From positions 50,215-114,214 of the forward strand of contig JABTVA010000008.1 of NCBI GenBank assembly GCA_015075075.1: 64,000 nt of DNA. Reading direction: 5' to 3'. Shown one piece after another: positions 37,321 through 56,491 of this stretch (within the stretch, counting starts at the first letter, position 1; each line of letters begins with the position of its first letter). The translations under genes and the position numbers were made by a program. The notes below the pieces were generated by a model. The model was given only the letters and a program-made list of their open reading frames with translations, did no database searches and was not told where the DNA came from. This stretch comes from Deltaproteobacteria bacterium (GTDB lineage: Bacteria > Desulfobacterota > GWC2-55-46).

Positions 37321-37689
37321 GCCTTGCGCTTGACAAGCGGCTCCAAGCCGGGTAGGGTGGACACAGCCCACCATTTCTCTGAGGTACAGGGCGACAGAAG
37401 AATCTCGTATTCAAGCCTCGTCGAAAAAGACCTTATAACGCGCTGCCGCGCTCTTTTTGGGCATGAGGCTCCGCGCCCTTTCCGCCTCCATCCTCCGGGC
37501 TCGGCCCTTAAGTCGCTCGGCCTTCGGCCTCGCTCCTAACAGCCCCGCCTCGCCCGCCCCGCCCCCATCCCCATGTTCGCTCCGCCTCATGCCCCCGGGG
37601 TTGTTTAAAAACAAACCAGCGCCTTCCTTGAGCTTGACAAGCGGCTCATGGAAATGCAATCATCATCCTGGAAATAGAAATGACATGTC

Positions 37690-37845
37690 CTGGTCAAGGG
37701 AATCCCGTGATCCGCCTGGGTGCGGAGAATCGGGAACGGACCCGCCACTGTGAGCGGATACGAAACCCGCACGAGCCACTGGCCTTAAGGCCGGGAAGGC
37801 GCGGGGAGTAGGTTGTTAATCCGCAAGTCAGGAGACCTGCCAGGA
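37690..37845 (+). promoter_or_regulatory. Cobalamin (AdoCbl) riboswitch
   Basis: 'AAGGGAATCCCGTGATCCGCCTGGGTGCGGAGAATCGGGAACGGACCCGCCACTGTGAGCGG' matches the 5' consensus, including the GCCACTG core. The B12 box 'AAGTCAGGAGACCTGCC' lies at 37825-37841. Confidence 0.8.
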
Positions 37846-37911
37846 TATGCCTCACGGATCTTCGATGGTAAAGAAGGTGAGGGCGGTTGCACTGGTTTTT
37901 CGAGTCTCCGC

Positions 37912-38021: not shown

Positions 38022-39050
38022 ATGTCTGATGCGAGAGGGTCAAAGGCCGTATTGCTTCTCGGCCACGGGAGCAAGGCCGACGAGGCCAACGAGACGCTTA
38101 GAAGGATTGCGAAGGCCGTGAAGGAGGCGGGCGGGTACGGCATAGTCCAGCCGGCCTTTCTCCAGATGGAGAGCCCGGACTTCCAGGAGGCCGTGGATAT
38201 GATGGTCGGGAGGGGGTTTACGGATATTACGGTCATGCCGTATTTCCTCTACATGGGCCTCCATGTGACAAAGGACCTGCCCGATGAGATAGAGCGGGCA
38301 AAGACGAGGCACAAGGGCCTCAGGATTTCAGTCAAGGACAACCTGGGCTTCCATGAAAAGCTCGTTGACATAACAATAGAGCGGATAGAGGCGGGGGCTA
38401 CCCGGGACGCGGGCGTGCCCAGCCAGCACCCGATAGAAAAAGAGAGCTTCAGGATATTGTCGTCCGAGATGGACGATAGCGCTTTTTCCTCCCTCGAACT
38501 CCCGATAATAAAGAGGGTCGTACACTCGACCGCCGATTTCGAGTACAAGGACCACGTGGGTTTCAGCCCTGGCGCTGTGGAGGCCGGCATAGAGGCCCTG
38601 AGGGCCGGGCGGGACATAATAACGGACGTAAGGATGATAGAGGCCGGGATATCGAAGGCTCGATTAACTCCCTTCGGTTCCGCCGTCCGCTGTTTCTCAT
38701 CTGACAGGGACGTGGCCGTGATTGCGGAGAAGGAGGGGCTTACCAAGACCGCGGCCTCCATGAGAAAGGCCTCGAAGCGGATGGACGGCTCGATAGTGGC
38801 GATAGGGAACGCGCCGACCGCGCTACAGGAGCTTCTGAAAATCGTCAAGGAAGGCGGGCCGAGGCCAGCCCTCGTCATAGGCGTGCCCGTCGGCTTCGTC
38901 GGCGCGGTCGAATCCAAGGAAGAGCTCGCGAAGAGCGGCATTCCTCATATACTCACGAGAGGGCGTAAGGGCGGGAGCACGGTCGCCGTGGCCATAGTGA
39001 ACGCACTTGCGATACTCGCCTCCGAGCTCGTGGAGGGTAGCGTCAAATAA
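38022..39050 (+). CDS. cbiC: Fused sirohydrochlorin cobaltochelatase (CbiX-small) / precorrin-8X methylmutase (CbiC)
   Basis: N-terminal CbiX signature 'VLLLGHGSKADEANE...MPYFLYMGLHV'. C-terminal CbiC/CobH domain with the conserved His-containing 'VVHSTADFEY' segment. Lies downstream of the B12 riboswitch. Confidence 0.75.
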   Translation: MSDARGSKAVLLLGHGSKADEANETLRRIAKAVKEAGGYGIVQPAFLQMESPDFQEAVDMMVGRGFTDITVMPYFLYMGLHVTKDLPDEIERAKTRHKGLRISVKDNLGFHEKLVDITIERIEAGATRDAGVPSQHPIEKESFRILSSEMDDSAFSSLELPIIKRVVHSTADFEYKDHVGFSPGAVEAGIEALRAGRDIITDVRMIEAGISKARLTPFGSAVRCFSSDRDVAVIAEKEGLTKTAASMRKASKRMDGSIVAIGNAPTALQELLKIVKEGGPRPALVIGVPVGFVGAVESKEELAKSGIPHILTRGRKGGSTVAVAIVNALAILASELVEGSVK

Positions 39051-39067
39051 CTGAAATACGGTTGTTT

Positions 39068-39351
39068 GCAACCTCTAAAAATTGCTATTTTCCCCGGACT
39101 CTGCGTAGTGCGGGAATAAAAATGCTCACATATTCAAAATATATGCTCCGCTTTTTATTCCCGCCTTTCCGGGAAAAGCGGGAAAAATCTCTAAGGAACC
39201 TCTGATTAATTCATGTGTTCGTCATTGCGAGCGAAGCGAAGCAATCTTATCTTTTGGAAAATCAAGCGCTTAGAGATTGCTTCGGAGCTGAAGCTCCGCA
39301 ACGACAAGAAACGAGAATTAATCAGAGCTTCTCTAATTTTTAGAGGTCGCC
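39068..39351. mobile_element. MITE family D with a nested family B MITE (39200-39327)
   Basis: Left D TIR 'GCAACCTCTAAAAATT' at 39068 and right D TIR 'TTTTTAGAGGTCGCC' at 39337-39351. The B element 'CTCTGATTAATTC...GAATTAATCAGAG' is inserted just before the right TIR. Confidence 0.75.
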
Positions 39352-39395
39352 TTGAATCAGCCTTTTGCCTCTTTCGATCTCAATGGGGAGCGAGA

Positions 39396-40367
39396 ATGCA
39401 CATACCTGACGGATACCTGAGCCCGGCGACCTGCGGCGTTTTTTACGCGGCAATGGCCCCGGTCTGGTACTTCGCCTCGAAGAGGGCGGAGAAGGTCCTT
39501 AAGCTCAGGGAGATGCCGTTACTTGCGCTCGGCGCGGCCTTCGTCTTCGTCATCATGATGTTCAACATCCCGCTCCCCGGCGGCTCTTCAGGGCACATGG
39601 CGGGCGGGGCGGTCGTGGCCATAGCGCTCGGGCCCTGGGCCGGGATAATCGCCATGAGCCTCGCGCTCGCGCTCCAGGCATTCCTCTTCGGCGACGGCGG
39701 CATCATGACGCTTGCGGCCAATTGCTTCAACATGGCCGTCATAATGAGCCTTTCGGGATACGGCATTTACCGGGCGCTCGCCTTCGGGGAGCCCGGCGCC
39801 GGAAGAAGGTTTTTCGCCGCCGCGGTTGCGGCATACGTCGCCGTCAACCTGGCCGCGCTCGCGGTGGCAGTGGAGCTGGGCATGCAGCCTCTTCTGGCAG
39901 CCGGGGCTGACGGCAGGCCGCTCTACGCGCCGTACCCGCTCTCCATCGCGGTGCCGGCGATGATGATCCCGCACCTCTTCTTTTTCGGGCCTGTCGAGGC
40001 TGTCGGGACGGCCCTTGTGGTATCCTATGTGCACTGGATGGATAGGGGCCTCCTCCACAAGGGGAAGGGGTCGCTTAAGCCCTTATGGATCGCGTTGTCC
40101 GTTCTTGCAGTGCTTACGCCCGCAGGGCTTATCGCGTCTGGCACGCCCTGGGGCGAATGGGGAAAGGATGAGCTTATGGAGCTCATAGGCTATGTGCCCG
40201 CCGGGATGGAGAAGTACGGGGAGACATGGAAGGGGTTTGTCCCGGATTACAGCCTCCCGCGGATGAGCGGCTTGCCTGAGCCCGTTATCTATATGCTCTC
40301 GGCCCTCCTTGGGAGCGCGCTCCTGGTCGCGGCCGTATACGCGTGGGGCAGGCTATGGCGGAGGTGA
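39396..40367 (+). CDS. cbiM: Cobalt ECF transporter S component CbiM fused to CbiN
   Basis: Starts 'MHIPDGYLS...' (CbiM N-terminal His motif). The C-terminal extension carries a CbiN-like TM pair. Confidence 0.8.
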   Translation: MHIPDGYLSPATCGVFYAAMAPVWYFASKRAEKVLKLREMPLLALGAAFVFVIMMFNIPLPGGSSGHMAGGAVVAIALGPWAGIIAMSLALALQAFLFGDGGIMTLAANCFNMAVIMSLSGYGIYRALAFGEPGAGRRFFAAAVAAYVAVNLAALAVAVELGMQPLLAAGADGRPLYAPYPLSIAVPAMMIPHLFFFGPVEAVGTALVVSYVHWMDRGLLHKGKGSLKPLWIALSVLAVLTPAGLIASGTPWGEWGKDELMELIGYVPAGMEKYGETWKGFVPDYSLPRMSGLPEPVIYMLSALLGSALLVAAVYAWGRLWRR

Positions 40368-41224
40368 TCCTGCCGGAGTGGCTCAAGGGCCGGGAAGAGG
40401 CGCCCGCCTCCTTGAGGGCCGGGAGCGCAGGCTTCATTGAAAGGAGCCTCGTTAACTTCGCCTCAACGATGAAAAGGCTCTATGTTGACGGAGACTACTC
40501 TTCTAAAAAAGGCGCGCTCCAGGCGATAGAGCCCAGGGCGAAGCTTGCGGGGTTTTTCTTCATCATAATAGCCGCCTCGCTTGCCCATAGCGCGGTCTTT
40601 CTGGGAGGGGTGCTCGTACTGGCCTTTGCCCTTTCATTTGTATCGCGGATAGGGCCGGGCCCCCTCGCGAAGAGGACGTTTCCGGCGTTCGTATTTACGT
40701 CCGTCATAGTCATACCCGTTATATTCGGCGCGGTCACGCCCGGAAGGGAAGTGCTGGACGTTTTCGGGGCGTCGGTCACTGGAGAGGGGCTCCGTAGCGC
40801 GGGTTTCTTCCTCGTGAGGGTCGCTGCCATGGTCTCGACTGCGATGCTCCTTTCGCTTACGACCAGGGAGGCGGATTTCTTCCGCGGGCTCGGCAGGTTC
40901 GTCCCGTCGTTTTTCGCCACCGCGCTCTTTTTGACCTTCAGGTACGCGTTCGTGCTTATAAAGACCGCCGAGGACTCGGCCCTCGCGATGAAGGCGAGGA
41001 CCATAGCAGGGGCCCGCGCAGTCGAGTCCCGGACTTGGTTCGCTGGAAGGGCAGCGTTACTTCTGAAAAAGGCATACGGCGTTGCCGAAGAGGTTGGCAT
41101 GGCGATGGTATCGAGGGGCTTTGACGGGAAGCTTAAGGGTGCAGCGGCCCGGGCGCTCCGGGGAAGGGACTACATCTGGCTCGGGTTCGCGAGCTTCGTC
41201 CTCTTCCTCTCCTTCGGAGCGTGA
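40343..41224 (+). CDS. cbiQ: Cobalt ECF transporter T component
   Basis: Polytopic membrane protein in the position of the EcfT/CbiQ family, between cbiMN and cbiO. Confidence 0.75.
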   Translation: MGQAMAEVILPEWLKGREEAPASLRAGSAGFIERSLVNFASTMKRLYVDGDYSSKKGALQAIEPRAKLAGFFFIIIAASLAHSAVFLGGVLVLAFALSFVSRIGPGPLAKRTFPAFVFTSVIVIPVIFGAVTPGREVLDVFGASVTGEGLRSAGFFLVRVAAMVSTAMLLSLTTREADFFRGLGRFVPSFFATALFLTFRYAFVLIKTAEDSALAMKARTIAGARAVESRTWFAGRAALLLKKAYGVAEEVGMAMVSRGFDGKLKGAAARALRGRDYIWLGFASFVLFLSFGA

Positions 41225-42042
41225 GCCGCGTAGCGGAAGAGGTCCTGGGGGCCGAAGGAGTAAGCTTCTCATACGGCCCGGCCCCGGCCCTCTCCAACGT
41301 AAGCTTAAGCGTCGCCAAAGGCGAATGCCTGGCCATACTCGGGGCGAACGGGAGCGGGAAGTCGACTCTCCTTAAGCTCCTGGACGGCCTCATATTCCCG
41401 TCCGCCGGATGTGTTTTCTTCGAGGGCAGGCCGATAACGGAAGAGGCCTTGAAGGGCGAGTTCCTCGTCCGCTTGAGGTCCGGCCTGGGCTTCCTCTTCC
41501 CCGAGCCGGACGTGCAGCTCTTCTGCCCTACGGTCTTCGACGAGCTGGCGTTCGGCCCGCTCCAGCTCGGGCTCGGGGCAGAGGAGGCTGCAAAGAGGGC
41601 GGGGGACCTCCTCCGTATGCTCGGGATAGAGGCGCTAAGGGACAGGCCGCCCTACTCCCTTAGCGGAGGAGAGAAGAAAAAGGTGGCGATAGCGTCGGTC
41701 CTGGCGATAAATCCAGGGGTGCTACTGCTGGATGAGCCCACGAACGGGCTCGACCCGAGAAGCCAGGTCTGGCTCTACGAGCTCCTTCTCTCCTTGAGGG
41801 GCCACGGGAAAACGGTTATAATCGCAACCCATGACCTGAGCCTCGCTGGCGACCTCTCGGAAAGGGTCTTGGTGCTGGACGAATCGCATGCGGTAGCGGC
41901 GGACGGGCCGGCAGGCGAGATACTGAAGGACAAGGGCCTGCTACTTAAGGCTAACATCATACACGAGCACGAGCACAGGCACGGCGATGTAGTGCACAGG
42001 CACAGCCACGGGCCGTTCTCCACTCACGACGAGCACGATTAG
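41221..42042 (+). CDS. cbiO: Cobalt ECF transporter ATPase with His-rich C-terminal tail
   Basis: Walker A 'GANGSGKST', signature 'LSGGEKKK' and Walker B 'LLLDEPT'. Tail 'HEHEHRHGDVVHRHSHGPFSTHDEHD'. Confidence 0.85.
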   Translation: MSRVAEEVLGAEGVSFSYGPAPALSNVSLSVAKGECLAILGANGSGKSTLLKLLDGLIFPSAGCVFFEGRPITEEALKGEFLVRLRSGLGFLFPEPDVQLFCPTVFDELAFGPLQLGLGAEEAAKRAGDLLRMLGIEALRDRPPYSLSGGEKKKVAIASVLAINPGVLLLDEPTNGLDPRSQVWLYELLLSLRGHGKTVIIATHDLSLAGDLSERVLVLDESHAVAADGPAGEILKDKGLLLKANIIHEHEHRHGDVVHRHSHGPFSTHDEHD

Positions 42043-42099
42043 GGCCTGAGCCCGCATTGATAACACAAACGAGGTCAAATCAAAAAGGAGGCAGCAGAT

Positions 42100-42270
42100 A
42101 TGGAAAGGACACTTGAAAGGGGCGGCATGGACGCGCTCATACCGGGCATCGTACTCGTGGCCCTGGCGTTCGCGATGGTGGTTATCGCCTTCGGTATGGA
42201 GTCGATAGCGCCCGGGGTGCACGACACCCTACACGACTTCAGGCATGTTCTCGGAATGCCGTGCCACTGA
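42100..42270 (+). CDS. CbtB-like small membrane protein (single TM + His-rich C-terminus)
   Basis: 56 aa 'MERTLERGGMDALIPGIVLVALAFAMVVIAFGMESIAPGVHDTLHDFRHVLGMPCH'. Strong RBS AAAAAGGAGG. Below the ORF-track size cut-off. Confidence 0.55.
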   Translation: MERTLERGGMDALIPGIVLVALAFAMVVIAFGMESIAPGVHDTLHDFRHVLGMPCH

Positions 42271-42281
42271 CCGGAGGTGCC

Positions 42282-42704
42282 ATGATCTCTCTCAAGAACA
42301 GCCTAAAGGCCGGCGCCATAGCCGGGGTCCTCTGGGGGTGGCTCTGCTACCTCGCGAACTTCGTAAGCGGCGTTTTCCCCTTTGAAGGGAGCTTCGCGCA
42401 GAACTTCATCACCTTCTCGTTCGGCGGGGCCGTCTTCGGAGTGGTCACGGGCGGCCTCCTGGCCGTGGTCGGGAGGTTCCTGCCGTTCAGGAAGACTGTC
42501 TTCAGGGCCGTCTTCATCTCGGCGGCGCTCTGGGTCGTCCTTCGCCTTGCCGGGGACTTCCTCTCGATGATGGAGCCCGAGAGATACCATCTCGTGAAGC
42601 CGGAGACGGTGCAGGGGTTCTTCCTTGCGCTCGCGCTCGGCGCCATACTCGGGCTACTCCTTAAGAAGGACGAGAGGGCAACGGCAGGGAATGCCCGGGC
42701 GTAA
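42282..42704 (+). CDS. Small 4-TM membrane protein (possible CbtA-like partner)
   Basis: About 140 aa, hydrophobic. Its start overlaps the stop of the CbtB-like ORF. Function inferred from context only. Confidence 0.4.
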   Translation: MISLKNSLKAGAIAGVLWGWLCYLANFVSGVFPFEGSFAQNFITFSFGGAVFGVVTGGLLAVVGRFLPFRKTVFRAVFISAALWVVLRLAGDFLSMMEPERYHLVKPETVQGFFLALALGAILGLLLKKDERATAGNARA

Positions 42705-43776
42705 GCTCAGGAAAGGGTATACGACAGGGACTTGCGCCGCTGCCGGGGCAAAGGCAGCGGCGCTCTTGCTTCTGGGCGGCCTGAGGCCGGGACACGTGGA
42801 TGTGCCGCTGCCGCGCGGCGGGATCTTGAGGGTGCCGGTAAAGTCGGTTGCCGGCGGAAAGGGTTTTGCGAGGGCCGTAATAGTGAAAGACGCCGGCGAC
42901 GACCCGGATGTGACGGACAAGGCCGAGTTCGTGGCCGAGGTCGAGATGCTCGGCGAGAACGCCAGGCGCGCGTCCGTAAGGGTGAGGGGCGGTAAGGGGG
43001 TAGGGGTCGTTACGAAACCCGGGCTAAAGGTCAGGCCCGGAAAACCCGCCATAAACCCCGTGCCGCTTTCGATGATACGGAAGGCGGTAAGGGAAGCTGC
43101 GGCCCGTTATCATAAGAAGGCGTCCTTCCTCGTGACCATATCCGTGCCGCTTGGAGCAGAGCTTGCCGCCAGGACCATGAACCCCAGGCTCGTCATCGTC
43201 GGCGGCATCTCGATTTTAGGCACTACCGGCATAGTCGAGCCCATGTCCCTTGCCGCGTACACCCATTCCATCTCGTGCGGCGTGAGCGTGGCCGTGGCAA
43301 GCGGACTTCAAGATGTGGTGTTCTCGACCGGCCGGTCGAGCGAAAAGGCCGTGGAGAAAAGGCTCAAGGTCCCGGAGGCGGCCTGCGTACTTACAGGCGA
43401 CCACATGGGCTATGCGCTCAGGGACGCGGCCACGAGGCCGGAAATAAAAAAGGTGGTCGTCGCCGGCCAGTTCGGGAAATTCACCAAGCTCGCCGCTGGG
43501 CGCTTCGAGACGCACTGCGACGACGCGCCCATAGAGCTCGATTTCCTGGCCGGGCTTTGCGAAAGGCTCGGCGCAGGGAAGGCGCTGGCCGGGCGGATAA
43601 GAGAGGCAAATACCGCGAGGCATGCGTTTTTCATGCTAAAGGAAAGCGGCCTTGAGAAGGCGCTGGACGAGGTCTCTATCCTGGTGAAAAGGAATGCGGA
43701 AAGGATACTCGGCAAGGGGAAGTCCGTGACCGCGGTCCTCGTCGGGTATGACGGGGACATAGCTTCGATAAGATGA
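42691..43776 (+). CDS. cbiD: Cobalt-precorrin-5B (C1)-methyltransferase
   Basis: 'LRKGYTTGTCAAAGAKAA' N-terminal signature. Length and order fit CbiD. Confidence 0.85.
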   Translation: MPGRKLRKGYTTGTCAAAGAKAAALLLLGGLRPGHVDVPLPRGGILRVPVKSVAGGKGFARAVIVKDAGDDPDVTDKAEFVAEVEMLGENARRASVRVRGGKGVGVVTKPGLKVRPGKPAINPVPLSMIRKAVREAAARYHKKASFLVTISVPLGAELAARTMNPRLVIVGGISILGTTGIVEPMSLAAYTHSISCGVSVAVASGLQDVVFSTGRSSEKAVEKRLKVPEAACVLTGDHMGYALRDAATRPEIKKVVVAGQFGKFTKLAAGRFETHCDDAPIELDFLAGLCERLGAGKALAGRIREANTARHAFFMLKESGLEKALDEVSILVKRNAERILGKGKSVTAVLVGYDGDIASIR

Positions 43777-45700: not shown

Positions 45701-46469
45701 GGATAATAATAGAGAGCCTTCCAGGGTATGGTTCGTGGGCTCAGGCCCCGGCGACCCGGAGCTTATAACGGTAAAGGGGATGAGGCTCCTCAGGGACGCC
45801 GACGTCGTCATTTACGCCGGGTCGCTCGTGAGAGAGAAGGTATTGGAGTGGTGCGAAAAGGGCCCTGAGGTGCATAACAGCGCCTCAATGGACCTCGGAG
45901 CCATAGTCTCTCTCATGATAGACGCATCCAGAAAGGGCAGGAAGGTAGTGAGGCTCCACACCGGCGACCCCTCTCTCTACGGGGCGTTGAGGGAGCAGAC
46001 CGAGGCCCTGGAAAAGGCGGGCGTCCCCTATGGCATAGTGCCGGGCGTCTCGTCGGCCTTTGCCTCGGCAGCGGCCCTCAAAAGGGAGCTTACGCTCCCG
46101 GGCGTTACGCAGACGGTCGTTTTTACGAGGCTCGAGGGCAGGACCCCTGTGCCGGAGAAGGAGCGCCTGGGCTCGCTTGCCGCGCACGGCGCGACCATCT
46201 GCATATTCCTGAGCGTTTCCATGATGGACGAGGTCGTAAGGGAGCTTAGTTGCGGCTACCCGCCGGAAACGCCTGTCGCGGTCGTATACAGGGCCTCGTG
46301 GGAGGACGAGCTTGTGGTAAAGGGCACTCTCGCTGACATAAAAGAGAAGGTCGGGGAGTCCGGTATTAAAAGGCAGGCCATGATAATAGTCGGAAAGGCC
46401 ATAGGCGACGGCCCGGTCGAGCAATCGAGGCTCTACGACCCGGGCTTCAGCCACGGGTTCAGGAAGTGA
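45693..46469 (+). CDS. cbiF: Cobalt-precorrin-4 C11-methyltransferase
   Basis: 'VWFVGSGPGDPELITVKG' and 'LHTGDPSLYGA' motifs. Confidence 0.8.
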   Translation: MPEDNNREPSRVWFVGSGPGDPELITVKGMRLLRDADVVIYAGSLVREKVLEWCEKGPEVHNSASMDLGAIVSLMIDASRKGRKVVRLHTGDPSLYGALREQTEALEKAGVPYGIVPGVSSAFASAAALKRELTLPGVTQTVVFTRLEGRTPVPEKERLGSLAAHGATICIFLSVSMMDEVVRELSCGYPPETPVAVVYRASWEDELVVKGTLADIKEKVGESGIKRQAMIIVGKAIGDGPVEQSRLYDPGFSHGFRK

Positions 46470-46861
46470 GCGCGTTCCGGGGCTGGGGGCCGGTGCTGCC
46501 GTATGCCCTCCTCATAATAGCGCTCTCGCTTCTGCCGTCATCCGAGGCCGAGGAGCACATCATCGGGATGGACAAGGTCTACCACGCGCTCGCCTATGGA
46601 GGCCTGGCCTGGCTCCTCATGAGGGCGCTCTCCGCTTCGATGCCGGGCCGGAAGGCCCCAGCGGTCCTGGCGGCCTTTTTGGCGGCTTCCGTCTTCGGGG
46701 CGTTCATGGAGTTCCTCCAGTCCGCCCTGACAACGACCCGTACGGGCGACCTCTATGACGCGCTCGCTAACGGGGTCGGCGCGGCCCTGGGCTTGATAGC
46801 GTACCAGCTTGCAAAGCCACTCAGGAGATCCTCCCTGACGAGCCCCGAGGCCCGAAGGTGA
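46466..46861 (+). CDS. VanZ-family membrane protein
   Basis: 131 aa, 4 TM, VanZ-like 'YHALAYGGLAWLL' segment. Confidence 0.5.
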   Translation: MSAFRGWGPVLPYALLIIALSLLPSSEAEEHIIGMDKVYHALAYGGLAWLLMRALSASMPGRKAPAVLAAFLAASVFGAFMEFLQSALTTTRTGDLYDALANGVGAALGLIAYQLAKPLRRSSLTSPEARR

Positions 46862-46908
46862 TAAAATTGGCCCCTTAAAGGGAAGCCGTATTCGAAGGAG
46901 GTGACGCC

Positions 46909-47625
46909 ATGCTCCTCGGCGAGTTGACGATGAAGGAATTCAAGAGGCTTGTGCCCAAGGCGACCCTTGTCGTGCCGTTCGGCACGATCGAGGCCCACGG
47001 CACGCACCTCCCGTTGAATACAGATACGCTCATAATACGCGAGACGGTGCGGAAGGTCGCTTCCGAAAGAAAGGACGTGATAATGGCGCCGCCTCTCCAG
47101 TACGGCGTCTGCACCTCGACAGCGGAGCACCCCGGCACGATCGGGATAAGCGCGCCGACCCTGAGGGCGTTCGTGACGGATACGGTACGTGGCGCCTATG
47201 AGCAGGGGTTCAGGAAGATGATCCTCGTCTCCGGTCACGGCGGCGGGATCCATGTGTCTGCCATGAAGGAGGCTTCCGAGGGGCTCGTAAAGGAGCTTCC
47301 CGGTTTGAGGCTTGCCGCCTTCTCGATATACGAGGTCCTCGGAAAGGAAGCGGGCGAGATAGCCGAGACAAGGAACGACTCCCATGCGGGCGAGATGGAG
47401 ACCTCCCTCATGCTCCACCTCGCGCCGGGACTCGTAAACGGCAGGGCAAAAGAAGAGTACCCGGCGTTCCCGAAGCCCCTTGTCGTAAAAGACAAGCTCA
47501 AATACTGGCCAGGCGCGGTCTGGGGAAACCCGGCAAAGGCGACAAAGGAAAAAGGCGAGAGGCTATTCAGGCTCATGACCGGAAGACTCGAAGAGGCGAT
47601 ACGGGCAGTTGAGCGGGCGCGCTGA
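46909..47625 (+). CDS. Creatininase-family amidohydrolase
   Basis: Metal-binding motifs 'GTIEAHGTHLPLNTD' and 'SGHGGG...HAGEMETS'. RBS GAAGGAGG. Confidence 0.7.
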   Translation: MLLGELTMKEFKRLVPKATLVVPFGTIEAHGTHLPLNTDTLIIRETVRKVASERKDVIMAPPLQYGVCTSTAEHPGTIGISAPTLRAFVTDTVRGAYEQGFRKMILVSGHGGGIHVSAMKEASEGLVKELPGLRLAAFSIYEVLGKEAGEIAETRNDSHAGEMETSLMLHLAPGLVNGRAKEEYPAFPKPLVVKDKLKYWPGAVWGNPAKATKEKGERLFRLMTGRLEEAIRAVERAR

Positions 47626-52715: not shown

Positions 52716-52849
52716 TCGACACCCTGTTAGAGGGGGCGAGCTTAAGCGCGCCTTGACTCTTACGCATCCTCCGTGTTAACATTTTTTACCGAAGGGCCGG
52801 TTTCTCTCTCAATATAGGCCCCGGGTATTAGATTTCCTAAAATCAAATA

Positions 52850-53005
52850 GAAACGATCTCCGAGCCATCCTGCCTAAAGCCGGTCCTTTTCATGGCCGCG
52901 CAACGGGGGGTGGCCGATAGGGCCCTGCTGGAAACGGTTTGGCCTCCCCACTGGAAAGGAGATTGACAGTGCCAACCCCTTTCCGTGGCGGTTGGTTTTT
53001 TTTTG
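52850..53005 (+). promoter_or_regulatory. Molybdenum-cofactor (Moco) riboswitch-like leader with terminator
   Basis: 'CTCCGAGCCATCCTGCC..AAAGCCGG...GGAAACGG...GGCCTCCCCACTGGAAAGGAGA' matches hallmark blocks of the Moco RNA motif. It is followed by hairpin 'CCAACC...GGTTGG' plus T9, immediately upstream of modABC. Confidence 0.55.
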
Positions 53006-53023
53006 CTTACTGAGGGGCGTGCC

Positions 53024-53791
53024 ATGATGCTCAGGTCTGTATTACTTTCATTCCTTTTTTTAGCGCAAATAATATGCCCGTTTCCCTCTGTAGCCGGAGA
53101 CCGGCAGCTTACTGTCGCGGGCGCATCGGACCTGGCATTCGCCTTCAAGGAGATAGCCGCGCTGTTCGAGAAGGAGACGGGCTGGAAGGTGGTGCTCTCT
53201 ATGGGCTCGACCGGGATGCTCGCCAAGCAGATAGAGCACGGCGCGCCTTTCGATGCGTTTTTCGCCGCCAACAAGAGCTATATAGACGGCCTTGCAGATA
53301 AGGGGAAGGTCATATCCGAGACCGTCGGACTATACGCGAGAGGGAGGATAGTCCTCGCCGTTCGGAAGGGGTCGGAGATGAAGCCCGAGGGGCTTCAAGG
53401 CCTCGTCAGCGGTTCATACAGGATAGCCATCGCCAACCCGGACCACGCGCCTTATGGCAAGGCCGCGATGGAAGCCATGAAGGCCGCCGGTGTCTGGGAC
53501 AAGGTGAAAACCAGGCTCGTCTACGGAGAGAACATAAGGCAGGCCCTCCAGTTCGTCCAGTCAGGGAACGCCCCTGTCGGGGTAGTGGCGCTATCTGTCG
53601 CCGACGTGCCGGAGATAGACTACATTCTCATACCCGAAGAGCTGCATGCCCCCATAGACCAGGCCGCGGCAGTGGTGACCGCGTCGAAGAACGGGCAGGC
53701 TGCAAGGGACTTCATAAGGTTCGTCAACGGGCCCTGGGGCGCCCCGATAATGGAAAAATACGGGTTCATGCTTCCGGGGGTGCTTGAATAA
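53024..53791 (+). CDS. modA: Molybdate/tungstate ABC transporter periplasmic binding protein
   Basis: Signal peptide 'MMLRSVLLSFLFLAQII' and ModA-family motifs ('SMGSTG', 'ANPDHAPYG'). Start set at the ATG after the leader terminator. Confidence 0.8.
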   Translation: MMLRSVLLSFLFLAQIICPFPSVAGDRQLTVAGASDLAFAFKEIAALFEKETGWKVVLSMGSTGMLAKQIEHGAPFDAFFAANKSYIDGLADKGKVISETVGLYARGRIVLAVRKGSEMKPEGLQGLVSGSYRIAIANPDHAPYGKAAMEAMKAAGVWDKVKTRLVYGENIRQALQFVQSGNAPVGVVALSVADVPEIDYILIPEELHAPIDQAAAVVTASKNGQAARDFIRFVNGPWGAPIMEKYGFMLPGVLE

Positions 53792-54448
53792 GTGGATTTG
53801 TTCCCTTTATACATAACCGTAAAGGTCTCGCTCACGGCGACGGTAATAACCGTCGCCGTAGGCCTTGTTCTCGCCTGGGTCATGGCAAAGCGGGAATTTT
53901 TCGGTAAAAGCATCGTGGACGTAGTGATAATGCAGCCGCTCGTCATCCCGCCCACGGTTCTCGGCTACTACCTCCTTGTAGCCTTCGGGAAATCGAGCTG
54001 GTTAGGGCAGTTCCTCTCCGACGGATTGGGCATCGAGCTCGTCTTTACCTGGAAGGGGGCGGTCATCGCAGCCTTCATCTCGTCGCTTCCCCTTTTCGTC
54101 AAGCCCGCGAGGGCAGCGCTCGAAGGCGTGGGCTCGGAGCTCGAGGACGCGGCAAGGCTCCTCGGGAAGACCGAGCTGCAGGTCATAACGACCATAACCC
54201 TGCCGCTTGCGTGGCGGGGGCTATTCGCGGGCGCGGTCATGGCCTTTGCGCGCGCGACCGGCGAGTTCGGCGCGACCCTAATGATAGCGGGGAACATCCC
54301 GGGCCTTACCCAGACCTTGCCCATAGCCATATACGACGCGGTGCAGGCAGGGGACTACGCGACAGCCAACCTGCTCGTCGGCATAATAACGCTATTCTCC
54401 TTCACGGTCCTCTTCATAGCCGGGAGGTTCAGCCGGGTGAGGTTCTGA
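53792..54448 (+). CDS. modB: Molybdate ABC transporter permease
   Basis: EAA loop region 'ARATGEFGATLMIAGN', about 218 aa with 5 TM. Confidence 0.8.
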   Translation: MDLFPLYITVKVSLTATVITVAVGLVLAWVMAKREFFGKSIVDVVIMQPLVIPPTVLGYYLLVAFGKSSWLGQFLSDGLGIELVFTWKGAVIAAFISSLPLFVKPARAALEGVGSELEDAARLLGKTELQVITTITLPLAWRGLFAGAVMAFARATGEFGATLMIAGNIPGLTQTLPIAIYDAVQAGDYATANLLVGIITLFSFTVLFIAGRFSRVRF

Positions 54449-54449
54449 G

Positions 54450-55460
54450 ATGCTGGACATATCCCTGAGAAAAAGGCTCCCCGGCTTCAATGTGGAGGTG
54501 GACCTCTCCGTGGACGAGGAGCTCCTTGTGCTCTTCGGCCCGTCCGGCGCCGGAAAGAGCCTGGTACTCAAGATGATATCCGGCATCGTCGAGCCTGACG
54601 CGGGCCGGGTGGCTGTTGCCAACGAAACGCTCTTCGATTCGGGCATTGGCGTAAACCTCCCCATGAGGATGAGGAAGGTAGGGCACCTCTTCCAGGACTA
54701 CGCGCTTTTCCCGCACATGACCGTATCGGAGAACATAGCCTACGGCATAGGGGGCGGGAACAAGGACGAGGCCCGTAAGAAGGTAGGGGAGCTCATTACC
54801 GTGATGAGGCTTTCGGGGCTTGAAAAGAGGTACCCGCAGGAGCTTTCGGGCGGGCAGAAGCAGAGGACCGCCCTTGCGAGGACCCTTGCGGCAGGGCCCA
54901 GGGTACTCCTCCTTGACGAGCCCTTCTCGGCCCTCGATTATCAGGTCAGGGAAAAGCTCAGGGCCGACCTCCTCAATATCCACCGCATCTACCCGATTAC
55001 GACCGTACTCGTAACGCACGACCTCGAAGAGGCCTTCATGCTGGGCAAAAGGATAGCGGTCATAAATAACGGGACTATCGAGCAGGCCGGCACCCAGGAG
55101 GACGTCTTCTACAGGCCCCTTACGAGGAACGTGGCCCGGTTCATGGGCGTGCGTAATATCTTCTCAGGAAAAGTTGCCGCCCTGGAAGGGGCGCACCTCG
55201 TCATAGACAACCCGGACATAGGCATGGTCAAGGCCCCATTGCCGCCCGGCCCGGCCTTGAGCCCCGGGACTGAAGTCTCTTTCTGCATACGCCCCGAGGA
55301 GATACTCGTCATTAGGCCCGACAGGGTGCTCGGGAAGGTCCAGGACAACATACTGGAATGCATGATAACGGGCACTGTCGGCAGGGGCCTGACCACATAC
55401 TCTACCTGGACGGCAGGAGGGCAGTACCGCCAAAGGCGGAGCTTCCAATTTTGTGCTTAG
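54450..55460 (+). CDS. modC: Molybdate ABC transporter ATPase with C-terminal TOBE-like domain
   Basis: Walker A 'GPSGAGKS', signature 'LSGGQKQR', Walker B 'LLLDEPF'. The last ~25 aa may be frame-disturbed. Confidence 0.8.
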   Translation: MLDISLRKRLPGFNVEVDLSVDEELLVLFGPSGAGKSLVLKMISGIVEPDAGRVAVANETLFDSGIGVNLPMRMRKVGHLFQDYALFPHMTVSENIAYGIGGGNKDEARKKVGELITVMRLSGLEKRYPQELSGGQKQRTALARTLAAGPRVLLLDEPFSALDYQVREKLRADLLNIHRIYPITTVLVTHDLEEAFMLGKRIAVINNGTIEQAGTQEDVFYRPLTRNVARFMGVRNIFSGKVAALEGAHLVIDNPDIGMVKAPLPPGPALSPGTEVSFCIRPEEILVIRPDRVLGKVQDNILECMITGTVGRGLTTYSTWTAGGQYRQRRSFQFCA

Positions 55461-55543
55461 AAAACTTGGACGTGCGGCCAGCGTATCAGTTGTTGAAAAA
55501 GGAGAATATTTGGGTAATAAGATAAAACCCTGAAAAGGTTTCA

Positions 55544-56491
55544 ATGGACACACACCGGCACGACACTCACGGGCATGAGGTTGAAGCCGACTCCGGCCTC
55601 AAAAGGCGCCTCCTCGTATCCATAACGCTTACGAGCGTAATCTTCATTGCCGAGCTCATAGGCGGTTTCCTTACGAACTCGCTCGCCCTCATGACCGACG
55701 CGGCGCACGTCTTCATGGACGTCTTCGCGCTTTCGCTCTCCCTATTCGCCATATACATAGCCGAGCTTCCGCCGACCGAGAAAAGGACCTACGGCTTCCA
55801 CAGGGTCGAGGTCTTCGTGTCGTTCATAAATAGCTTCGTCCTCGTCCTCATAACCGCCTTCATCTTCTACAAGGGCTTCCTCCGGTTCTTCAACCCCGAG
55901 CCGGTCGAGAGCGCCGGGGTGCTCATCGTGGGCTCCATAGGCCTGGTCGTTAACCTGATGGTCGCGAAATGGCTGCACGGCCACGCAAAGTCCGACCTGA
56001 ACGTCAGGAGCGCCTTCATACACGTCGTGGGCGACGCTGCGGCCTCGGTGGGAGTCATAATCTCGGCTGTCGTAATATATTATACTGGATGGTATCCCAT
56101 CGACCCGCTCATAAGCATGGCCATCTGCGCGCTTATCATAAACGGGGCGGTTAAGATAATAAGGGAGTCCTCGCACATACTCCTTGAGGGTGTGCCGAGG
56201 GAGATAGATTTCGGGAGGGTCAGGGACGACATACTCTCGCCCGAGGGCGTAACAGGCGTGCACAGCCTGCACATCTGGTCAATATGCCACAACGTCTACG
56301 CCCTTAGCGCGCACGTGGACATAATCCCGACCCAGAGGTGGAGGATGGGGGAGATATTCAGCGAGATAAACGAGAAGCTCGCGCATGACCACCATATCTT
56401 CTACACCACCCTGCAGGCCGAATGCTCAGGATGCGAGCCGAATGACATATTCCGGAAGATAGCCCACAGGGGGCGCGGACACCTGCATTGA
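55544..56491 (+). CDS. Cation diffusion facilitator family transporter (CzcD/ZitB-like)
   Basis: N-terminal His-rich 'HRHDTHGHE', about 6 TM with 'HVFMD' and 'HVVGD' metal sites, and a C-terminal cytoplasmic domain. Confidence 0.8.
   Translation: MDTHRHDTHGHEVEADSGLKRRLLVSITLTSVIFIAELIGGFLTNSLALMTDAAHVFMDVFALSLSLFAIYIAELPPTEKRTYGFHRVEVFVSFINSFVLVLITAFIFYKGFLRFFNPEPVESAGVLIVGSIGLVVNLMVAKWLHGHAKSDLNVRSAFIHVVGDAAASVGVIISAVVIYYTGWYPIDPLISMAICALIINGAVKIIRESSHILLEGVPREIDFGRVRDDILSPEGVTGVHSLHIWSICHNVYALSAHVDIIPTQRWRMGEIFSEINEKLAHDHHIFYTTLQAECSGCEPNDIFRKIAHRGRGHLH

Follow-up and report, generated by a model that had tools for sequence, protein, structure and literature searches.

Why would a cobalamin biosynthesis operon that already encodes one cobalt importer also carry a gene pair resembling a second? 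The question is posed by a 64,000-nucleotide stretch of DNA (hereafter the window; contig JABTVA010000008.1, assembly GCA_015075075.1) from an uncultured sulfate-reducer-type bacterium. Its + strand holds an anaerobic-pathway cobalamin operon at 37.6 to 50.6 kb, as read from profile scans and sequence, and between the genes of the energy-coupling factor (ECF) importer CbiM-CbiQ-CbiO and cbiD lie a small cbtB-like gene and a 140-aa partner gene. The namesake system, the CbtAB cobalt transporter (PF09489 plus PF09490; TIGR02459/TIGR02458), was itself predicted by comparative genomics (cited in PMC2667541). We consider it probable that the pair is a module for cobalt uptake across the inner membrane, a compact and divergent form of CbtAB that acts autonomously, is cotranscribed with the anaerobic cobalamin pathway, and is repressed by adenosylcobalamin (AdoCbl) through the riboswitch of the operon.

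The cbtB-like gene runs from an ATG at 42100 to a TGA stop at 42268-42270 and encodes 56 aa, MERTLERGGMDALIPGIVLVALAFAMVVIAFGMESIAPGVHDTLHDFRHVLGMPCH, with the C-terminal end VHDTLHDFRHVLGMPCH. A preliminary description of this DNA had reported a 171-bp open reading frame (ORF) with a strong ribosome binding site and a single-pass membrane product typical of CbtB, and each of these points was borne out: AAGGAGG stands 8 nt before the ATG, the peptide has one hydrophobic stretch (residues ~13 to 32), and in the HMM search proposed there it exceeded the Pfam gathering threshold for CbtB (PF09489, 37.6 versus 27 bits, E = 2.4e-9; residues 18 to 56 on profile positions 13 to 51 of 51). This score places the small subunit within Pfam CbtB. 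It scored below the cutoff of the NCBIfam model TIGR02459, a hypothetical equivalog (28.7 versus 64.4 bits), and its subfamily is shorter than canonical CbtB and lacks the EQGATS-type insert. In a word-indexed search of 5.8 billion proteins we recovered 24 homologues, each 56 to 60 aa long and carrying PF09489, and their C termini share V-H-D-x-x-H-D-F-R-H-V-x-G-M-P-C-H as an invariant or nearly invariant motif. Residues H41, H45, R48, H49, G52, C55, and H56 of the subfamily also occur in seven canonical CbtB proteins encoded on annotated plasmids, and the hallmark of CbtB, a single transmembrane (TM) segment followed by a His-rich C-terminal motif ending G-x-P-C-H, is present. Comparison with three orthologues (Nei-Gojobori) gave a ratio of nonsynonymous to synonymous substitution rates (dN/dS) of 0.07 to 0.10, indicating purifying selection. 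The earlier statement that the ORF is uncalled was mistaken: the source contigs carry a 56-aa gene call at this position, and an identical peptide is named "CbtB-domain containing protein" in NCBI (MBE7415160.1/MCL4873045.1). A spurious ORF in high-GC DNA and a leader peptide were also considered; HMM score, conservation, and dN/dS rule out both.

The partner gene starts at ATG 42282, behind a GGAGG at 42273-42277, and ends at 42704, leaving an 11-nt gap after the cbtB-like gene. The overlap between the two genes that had been described exists just for a GTG start at 42261 (10 nt), which we rejected in favor of ATG 42282 on the ribosome binding site, public gene calls, and relatives. The description of a 140-aa, four-TM protein agrees with the AlphaFold2 (AF2) model, which has four helices (mean pLDDT 83.8). 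In NCBI the protein is 100% identical to a "hypothetical protein" of a Deltaproteobacteria metagenome-assembled genome (MAG). Pfam and NCBIfam scans produced no match, returning noise only (Acyl_transf_3, DUF6069), and HMMER, run exhaustively with the family profile over 1.84 billion representatives, recovered only 50 clusters, nearly all of 130 to 160 aa. Several features are conserved across this family: TM1 is Gly-rich and closes with WGW, TM2 contains GG, TM4 opens with Q-G, and loops 1, 2, and 3 carry F-P-F-E, L-P-F-R/K, and M-E-P-x-R-Y-H, respectively. The partner gene is likewise under purifying selection (dN/dS 0.12 to 0.13 versus three orthologues, Nei-Gojobori).

CbtA proteins are ~230 to 290 aa long and have five predicted TM segments; the canonical ones retrieved here were 241 to 292 aa. 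A protein of 140 aa with four helices has neither this size nor this topology, and when the Pfam matches of 36 partner-family members (E ≤ 0.1) were ranked by frequency, the 25 leading families listed did not include PF09490. Formally, the partner falls outside the CbtA family. Its relationship to CbtA was instead detected through a general sample of CbtB loci, collected by scanning metagenomes with a back-translated CbtB C-terminal motif (120 loci), in nearly all of which, where enough downstream DNA was present, the gene after cbtB encodes CbtA. The partner HMM matched a divergent subgroup of ~240-aa CbtA proteins (15 proteins, at about 17 to 35 bits), which we label "type II" and which pairs with a CbtB ending ...GYDQG...HE[FL]THDMRHAAGFPCH. 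The matched segments are collinear and cover TM1, TM2 with the loop/TM3 motif LPxKxxVxKAVxxSxxxW, and the last TM with GxxLGxxWKK. HHalign aligned the partner family with type II CbtA at 88% probability (E = 3e-6, 97 columns), compared with ~1% (E ~0.06) for reversed controls, and aligned type II with canonical CbtA at 99.9%. As a specificity control, we translated 1.15 Mb of fetched loci in six frames, which gave 5,608 ORFs of 80 aa or more, and ran the partner HMM against them at E ≤ 10. Besides 36 partner ORFs it matched 27 others, and all 27 were CbtA-HMM hits, where chance would give ~0.5 (98 CbtA ORFs in 5,608).

Because of the type II alignment and the outcome of this control, we read the partner, from its sequence, as a remote, shortened CbtA homologue, here named mini-CbtA. 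The earlier term "CbtAB-like pair" is therefore apt as regards homology, and the formal CbtA family match that it might imply is missing. Mini-CbtA keeps TM1, the conserved Glu after TM1, TM2, the cytoplasmic LPxK/RxxVxK/RAVxxSxxxW loop, TM3, and the terminal TM; it is without the long first outer loop of CbtA and without the LKYPANPP/TM4/TM5/PxNPD region. Two observations concern the surroundings of this family. Type II pairs were seen in metagenome loci L044, L049, L067, L071, L091, L094, L103, and L107 (CbtB end GYDQG..F..(x)..HE[FL]THDMRHAAGFPCH), and the type II CbtA proteins carry VEPYLDQAIGIEN after TM1 and bridge canonical CbtA and the 140-aa partner family. The weakest member of the partner-family search, P0107, has a full-length match to Pfam DUF6789 at 26 bits, just below the gathering score of 27.1; on this one borderline member, DUF6789 may be distantly linked to the mini-CbtA/CbtA membrane proteins.

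The operon surrounding the pair contains the following features.

37674..37858, + strand: cobalamin (AdoCbl) riboswitch aptamer at the operon head (Rfam RF00174, 108.4 bits versus gathering score 31.5)
38022..39050, + strand: cbiX-cbiC fusion, cobaltochelatase plus precorrin-8X methylmutase (Pfam CbiX 94.7, CbiC 266 bits)
39396..40367, + strand: cbiM with fused C-terminal PDGLE domain, ECF S component (Pfam CbiM 194.9, PDGLE 34.7 bits; NF005598 373 bits)
40355..41224, + strand: cbiQ, ECF T component (Pfam CbiQ 93.1 bits; TIGR02454 114 versus cutoff 111.8)
41221..42042, + strand: cbiO, ECF ATPase (ABC_tran 104.4 bits)
41959..42039, + strand: His-rich C-terminal tail of CbiO, IIHEHEHRHGDVVHRHSHGPFSTHDEHD (sequence; conservation)
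42085..42091, + strand: Shine-Dalgarno sequence AAGGAGG of the cbtB-like gene (read from sequence)
42100..42270, + strand: cbtB-like gene, 56 aa (PF09489; conservation; dN/dS)
42282..42704, + strand: partner gene, predicted mini-CbtA, 140 aa, four TM (AF2 helices; pairing; CbtA homology)
42691..43776, + strand: cbiD (Pfam CbiD 290 bits; TIGR00312 378 bits; start from source-contig gene call plus sequence)

Beyond cbiD the order is cbiE/T, cbiL, cbiH, a VanZ-like gene, a creatininase-family gene, cbiG, and cbiF. The mechanical ORF of cbiX-cbiC begins at 37887, and its likely start, ATG 38022, was inferred from an orthologue in a close relative (L015, below). On the source contigs cbiM is called as 323 aa and cbiQ as 289 aa. 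CbiM, CbiQ, and CbiO all lie above their own Pfam thresholds. The label "cbiMNQO" used in the preliminary description needs correction, as the profile scan found no discrete cbiN in the operon and the PDGLE domain is instead fused to the C terminus of CbiM. cbiD begins inside the partner gene, with an overlap of 14 nt, and the two are likely translationally coupled.

To place the pair among its relatives, we scanned genomes, taking one per species, and obtained 24 loci, which with the window and three metagenome loci make 28. All 24 come from MAGs, assigned to Deltaproteobacteria or Thermodesulfobacteriota except for one Nitrospinota, one Ca. Desulfatibia, and two labeled "uncultured bacterium." The conservation of the small ORF that had been proposed as a check is complete: a cbtB-like gene lies directly upstream of the partner in 28 of 28 loci, so that the obligate colocation of CbtAB recurs with a shortened larger subunit. 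A cobalamin riboswitch precedes the pair in each of the 10 related loci tested, and the window likewise shows the linkage to B12 genes and the upstream B12 regulatory element that accompany CbtAB (riboswitch 37674-37858; cbi genes on the flanks). The set cbiXC-cbiM-cbiQ-cbiO precedes the pair in 13 of the 24 genome-scan loci, where cbtB is usually separated from cbiO by a gene for an OprB-family porin; it is missing from 8, though upstream sequence is present, and 3 could not be judged.

Loci of the second kind bear on autonomy. In L015 (MAG UBA5799), the closest species-level relative (~90% identity), cbiXC, the cbtB-like gene, and the partner are intact, and cbiM-cbiQ-cbiO is reduced to a ~360-bp remnant with broken frames (L015:7437-7818) in which the CbiO fragments LLLDGPTNGLD and GKTVIIQTH are still legible. 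Here the ECF importer appears to have been lost recently and the CbtB pair kept. The cbiMQO genes are also missing from L038 (cbiXC-Porin_4-cbtB-partner), from L025 (riboswitch-nitroreductase-cbtB-partner), from metagenome locus L005, where a MetA-like outer-membrane barrel fills the porin slot, and from L034, a minimal riboswitch-Porin_4-cbtB-partner unit with no cbi enzyme genes at all; L026, L027, and L032 also have the pair without cbiMQO at the locus. It is because the pair stays intact where cbiMQO has decayed or is lacking that we regard it as autonomous from the ECF importer. Another locus without the full set, L036, is arranged otherwise: under a cobalamin riboswitch it reads cbiXC-cbiM (218 aa, L036:1790-2446)-cbtB-partner, with no cbiQ or cbiO at the locus. 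No other arrangement seen hints that CbiM and the pair might be functionally linked.

CbtAB is characteristically found where other known cobalt importers are absent. That part of the family description does not hold here, with cbiM-cbiQ-cbiO immediately upstream in the window and in the 13 genome-scan loci. Of the 120 motif-scan loci, 40 are 6 kb or longer, and in these general CbtAB loci neither cbiM nor cbiQ ever stands beside CbtAB. The claim that both systems in one operon are atypical was thus right for the family at large and wrong for this clade: the combination is unusual family-wide and is the commonest arrangement here. As to the slot directly upstream of cbtB, it holds OprB, Porin_4, or MetA-like barrels in various relatives (L001:4523-5806, L034:575-1612, L038:6641-7741, L005:4998-5933), which are candidate cobalt-passing porins; in the window this slot has no porin gene.

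The His-rich tail that the preliminary description had noted on CbiO is indeed there. Its sequence is HEHEHRHGDVVHRHSHGPFSTHDEHD, and residues 247 to 273 hold 9 His in 27 residues. The tail lies outside every CbiO/ECF model match, those of the NCBIfam CbiO models included, and outside the best solved relative, the Rhodobacter capsulatus CbiO of structure 5x3x (E = 3e-50), which aligns with residues 8 to 244 only. The motif NIIHEHxHRHGxxxHxHSHGPxSxHDEH is kept in 15 of 15 relatives, with 9 to 10 His in the last 40 residues. A role as a cytoplasmic metal acceptor or in trans-inhibition is plausible.

How might such a pair move cobalt? In the partner family alignment, the N terminus, loop 2, and the C terminus are rich in Lys and Arg (2.1, 1.9, and 2.3 per sequence), and loops 1 and 3 are poor in them and acidic. 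In the CbtB alignment there are 2.0 Lys plus Arg before the TM segment, and the tail has 1.0 Lys plus Arg, 3.0 Asp plus Glu, and 4.0 His. By the positive-inside rule, these counts suggest that the partner has both termini inside and its FPFE and MEPxRYH loops outside and that CbtB has its N terminus inside and its tail outside. With these topologies, all conserved polar residues and potential ligands would face the periplasm, namely, H41, D42, H45, D46, R48, H49, C55, and H56 of the CbtB tail and F-P-F-E35 and M-E98-P-x-R-Y-H103 of the partner. In the mechanism that we propose, Co2+ would cross the outer membrane, in many relatives via the porin encoded directly upstream, and be caught by the His/Asp/Cys tail of CbtB. 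The metal would then be handed to the acidic and His (Glu/His) ligands of the four-TM mini-CbtA and conducted inward. Mini-CbtA is probably oligomeric, packed through its many small-residue (Gly-rich) TM motifs, and passage would take place through a CbtB/mini-CbtA oligomer without ATP. Because no ATPase belongs to the module, the energy for transport would presumably come from the membrane potential or from the metal gradient. The module and the ECF importer CbiM(PDGLE)QO would operate side by side in this genome. Published results on canonical CbtAB fit import: coenzyme B12 represses cbtBA 43-fold in P. denitrificans (PMC8123684), and in M. capsulatus cobalt becomes less toxic when cbtB is knocked down (PMC13108547).

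A bolder version of this proposal centers on the porin-CbtB-mini-CbtA unit, which stands alone in L034 and whose porin slot is filled by three different families in relatives. The riboswitch-controlled unit would then be a dedicated trans-envelope pathway for cobalt acquisition, the porins would be first candidates for cobalt-selective outer-membrane channels, mini-CbtA would be the minimal functional core of the CbtA family, and the CbiO tail might serve as cytoplasmic acceptor or sensor. We offer this extension tentatively and think it rather doubtful as a whole.

Other explanations of the pair deserve weighing against an autonomous module. It could be an accessory of the ECF importer that faces the periplasm, captures Co2+, and hands it to CbiM, as CbiN or NikK/NikL do, without being a transporter itself. 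Its position directly after cbiM-cbiQ-cbiO in the window and in 13 of 24 genome-scan loci invites this idea, as do the missing discrete cbiN, the cbiM-cbtB-partner order of L036, and the resemblance to CbiN, also a small protein of the membrane, for which the outer loop is essential (PMC7689651). The pair is nevertheless intact in eight loci where cbiM is absent or decayed (L005, L015, L025, L026, L027, L032, L034, and L038), neither CbiM nor CbiQ adjoins cbtB in the 40 general loci, and CbiM already has a PDGLE domain; we judge the accessory role quite improbable. Descent is the issue in another alternative, in which CbtB has recruited an unrelated family of small membrane proteins, perhaps allied to DUF6789, and TM composition made similar by convergence accounts for the profile matches. 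Against this, every non-self hit of the partner HMM was a CbtA and no other membrane ORF among the 5,608 was drawn in. The matches are, moreover, collinear and in several segments, they include the specific loop motif LPxKxxVxKAVxxSxxxW, and the 88% HHalign probability stands against ~1% for reversed nulls. An origin of the partner outside CbtA is accordingly unlikely.

Finally, the pair might be a membrane-tethered cobalt chaperone or sensor, whose tail would be cytoplasmic and pass Co2+ to CbiX or buffer it, or it might be an exporter. Proximity to cbiX/cbiC and the likely translational coupling to cbiD are compatible with this, and the cytoplasmic His-rich tail of the neighboring CbiO points to cobalt handling in the cytoplasm. 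By the distribution of charges, however, the CbtB tail and the conserved loops would lie outside; porin genes stand directly upstream in many loci, to the point that L034 has porin, cbtB, and partner without cbi enzymes; repression by a B12 riboswitch suits acquisition better than efflux; and knock-down of canonical cbtB lowers cobalt toxicity (PMC13108547). Either form of this explanation appears highly improbable.

Several points nonetheless weigh against the uptake module that we prefer. The CbtA search proposed in the preliminary description failed: a Pfam scan gave no PF09490 match for the partner even at E ≤ 1. Direct HHalign comparison of the partner with proteobacterial CbtA was weak: 7 CbtA sequences gave 6%, a broader profile of the partner gave 38%, and 127 CbtA proteins gave 14% (about 4 to 38% overall). 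TM-rich profiles can match spuriously, and since one such profile reached 72% against its own reverse, we did not accept this direct comparison as evidence. The lack of cbiMQO at a locus is not its lack from the genome, and all the relatives are MAGs. Topology, stoichiometry, and energy coupling of the pair are predictions, and cobalt rather than nickel as the metal is inferred from the B12 context only. The parent family shares in this: in the papers found, CbtAB is described only as predicted or putative (PMC2667541), the P. denitrificans and M. capsulatus results are indirect evidence (PMC8123684; PMC13108547), and CbtAB is unmentioned in a 2021 review of cobalt (PMC7689651). Our literature search found no direct CbtAB transport assay, and the function of the family rests on genomic and indirect physiological evidence.

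Further observations concern the DNA around the pair. Between cbiC and cbiM lies an AT-rich spacer of ~345 nt (39051-39395; 43% GC versus ~62% in the flanks) with nested inverted repeats (39068-39083/39335-39350, 39196-39212/39315-39331, and 39237-39247/39274-39284) and a core, GTCATTGCGAGCGAAGCGAAGCAATC, that occurs once in the window. Because the same spacer measures just 13 to 45 nt in relatives, it looks like an inserted element within the operon, similar to a miniature inverted-repeat transposable element. The VanZ-like membrane protein gene and the creatininase-family gene between cbiH and cbiG (46466-47625) keep their placement in the cbi operons of relatives (L001, L004, and others). 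Downstream of the operon, a molybdenum/tungsten-cofactor (Moco) riboswitch at 52846-52977 (58.5 bits) is followed at 52985-56491 by an ABC transporter (SBP_bac_11, permease, and ATPase) and a cation diffusion facilitator (CDF) efflux gene, probably a molybdate or tungstate uptake operon.

The pair is a compact variant of an already predicted kind of system, CbtAB, of which the small gene was already annotated as CbtB-domain and the large one as hypothetical. In the literature searched, no CbtB with a short partner has been described, and no biochemical or structural characterization was found for CbtAB, although it is a widespread predicted cobalt importer. A natural minimal CbtAB shows what CbtA can do without and where the likely core residues lie; the minimal version comprises 56 plus 140 residues and five TM helices in total, with the conserved polar residues predicted on one face of the membrane. 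Being so small, it lends itself to expression, uptake assays, and structure determination. The proposed link to CbtA also allows ~50 sequence clusters, now "hypothetical protein" without a Pfam family, to be annotated. The porins under B12 riboswitch control beside the module are leads on how cobalt passes the outer membrane, for which a recent review lists no confirmed cobalt-specific component (PMC7689651). Practical impact is otherwise limited, this being a variant of a predicted system in uncultured bacteria and not surprising in kind.

Set beside known systems, the pair comes closest to CbtAB. Shared features are adjacent genes in the order cbtB then cbtA, a small subunit with one TM and the C-terminal VH[DE]xxHDxRHxxGxPCH, linkage to B12 genes under cobalamin riboswitch control, and a large subunit that appears remotely homologous over TM1 to TM3 and the last TM. 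In contrast to CbtAB, the large subunit has 140 aa and four TM rather than ~240 to 290 aa and at least five, having lost the first outer loop that is often His-rich in CbtA; the CbtB is shorter, without the "EQGATS" insert and below the TIGR02459 cutoff; and the pair resides beside ECF CbiMQO in anaerobic-pathway operons of uncultured Thermodesulfobacteriota, whereas the sampled canonical loci have no CbiM or CbiQ. Type II CbtA is the closest detectable relative of the partner, with the same TM1, Glu after TM1, TM2-loop-TM3 motif, and C-terminal TM ending GxxLGxxWKK, but it is full length and includes the LKYPANPPxVG and PxNPDxI regions that the partner is missing. With the ECF importer CbiMNQO (Salmonella/Rhodobacter; 5x3x), which is present in this same operon, the pair has in common its encoding in cbi operons and a predicted part in cobalt uptake for B12 synthesis; the ECF system is ATP driven, with an unrelated fold and multi-TM S and T components, whereas the pair includes no ATPase and is found in several relatives without CbiMQO. 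CbiN and NikK-NikL, accessories of Ni/Co ECF importers, are also small membrane proteins with an outer loop or domain in metal loading and are encoded beside cbiM/nikM (PMC7689651; PMC545781), but they have no sequence relationship to the pair, which is kept in loci without CbiM.

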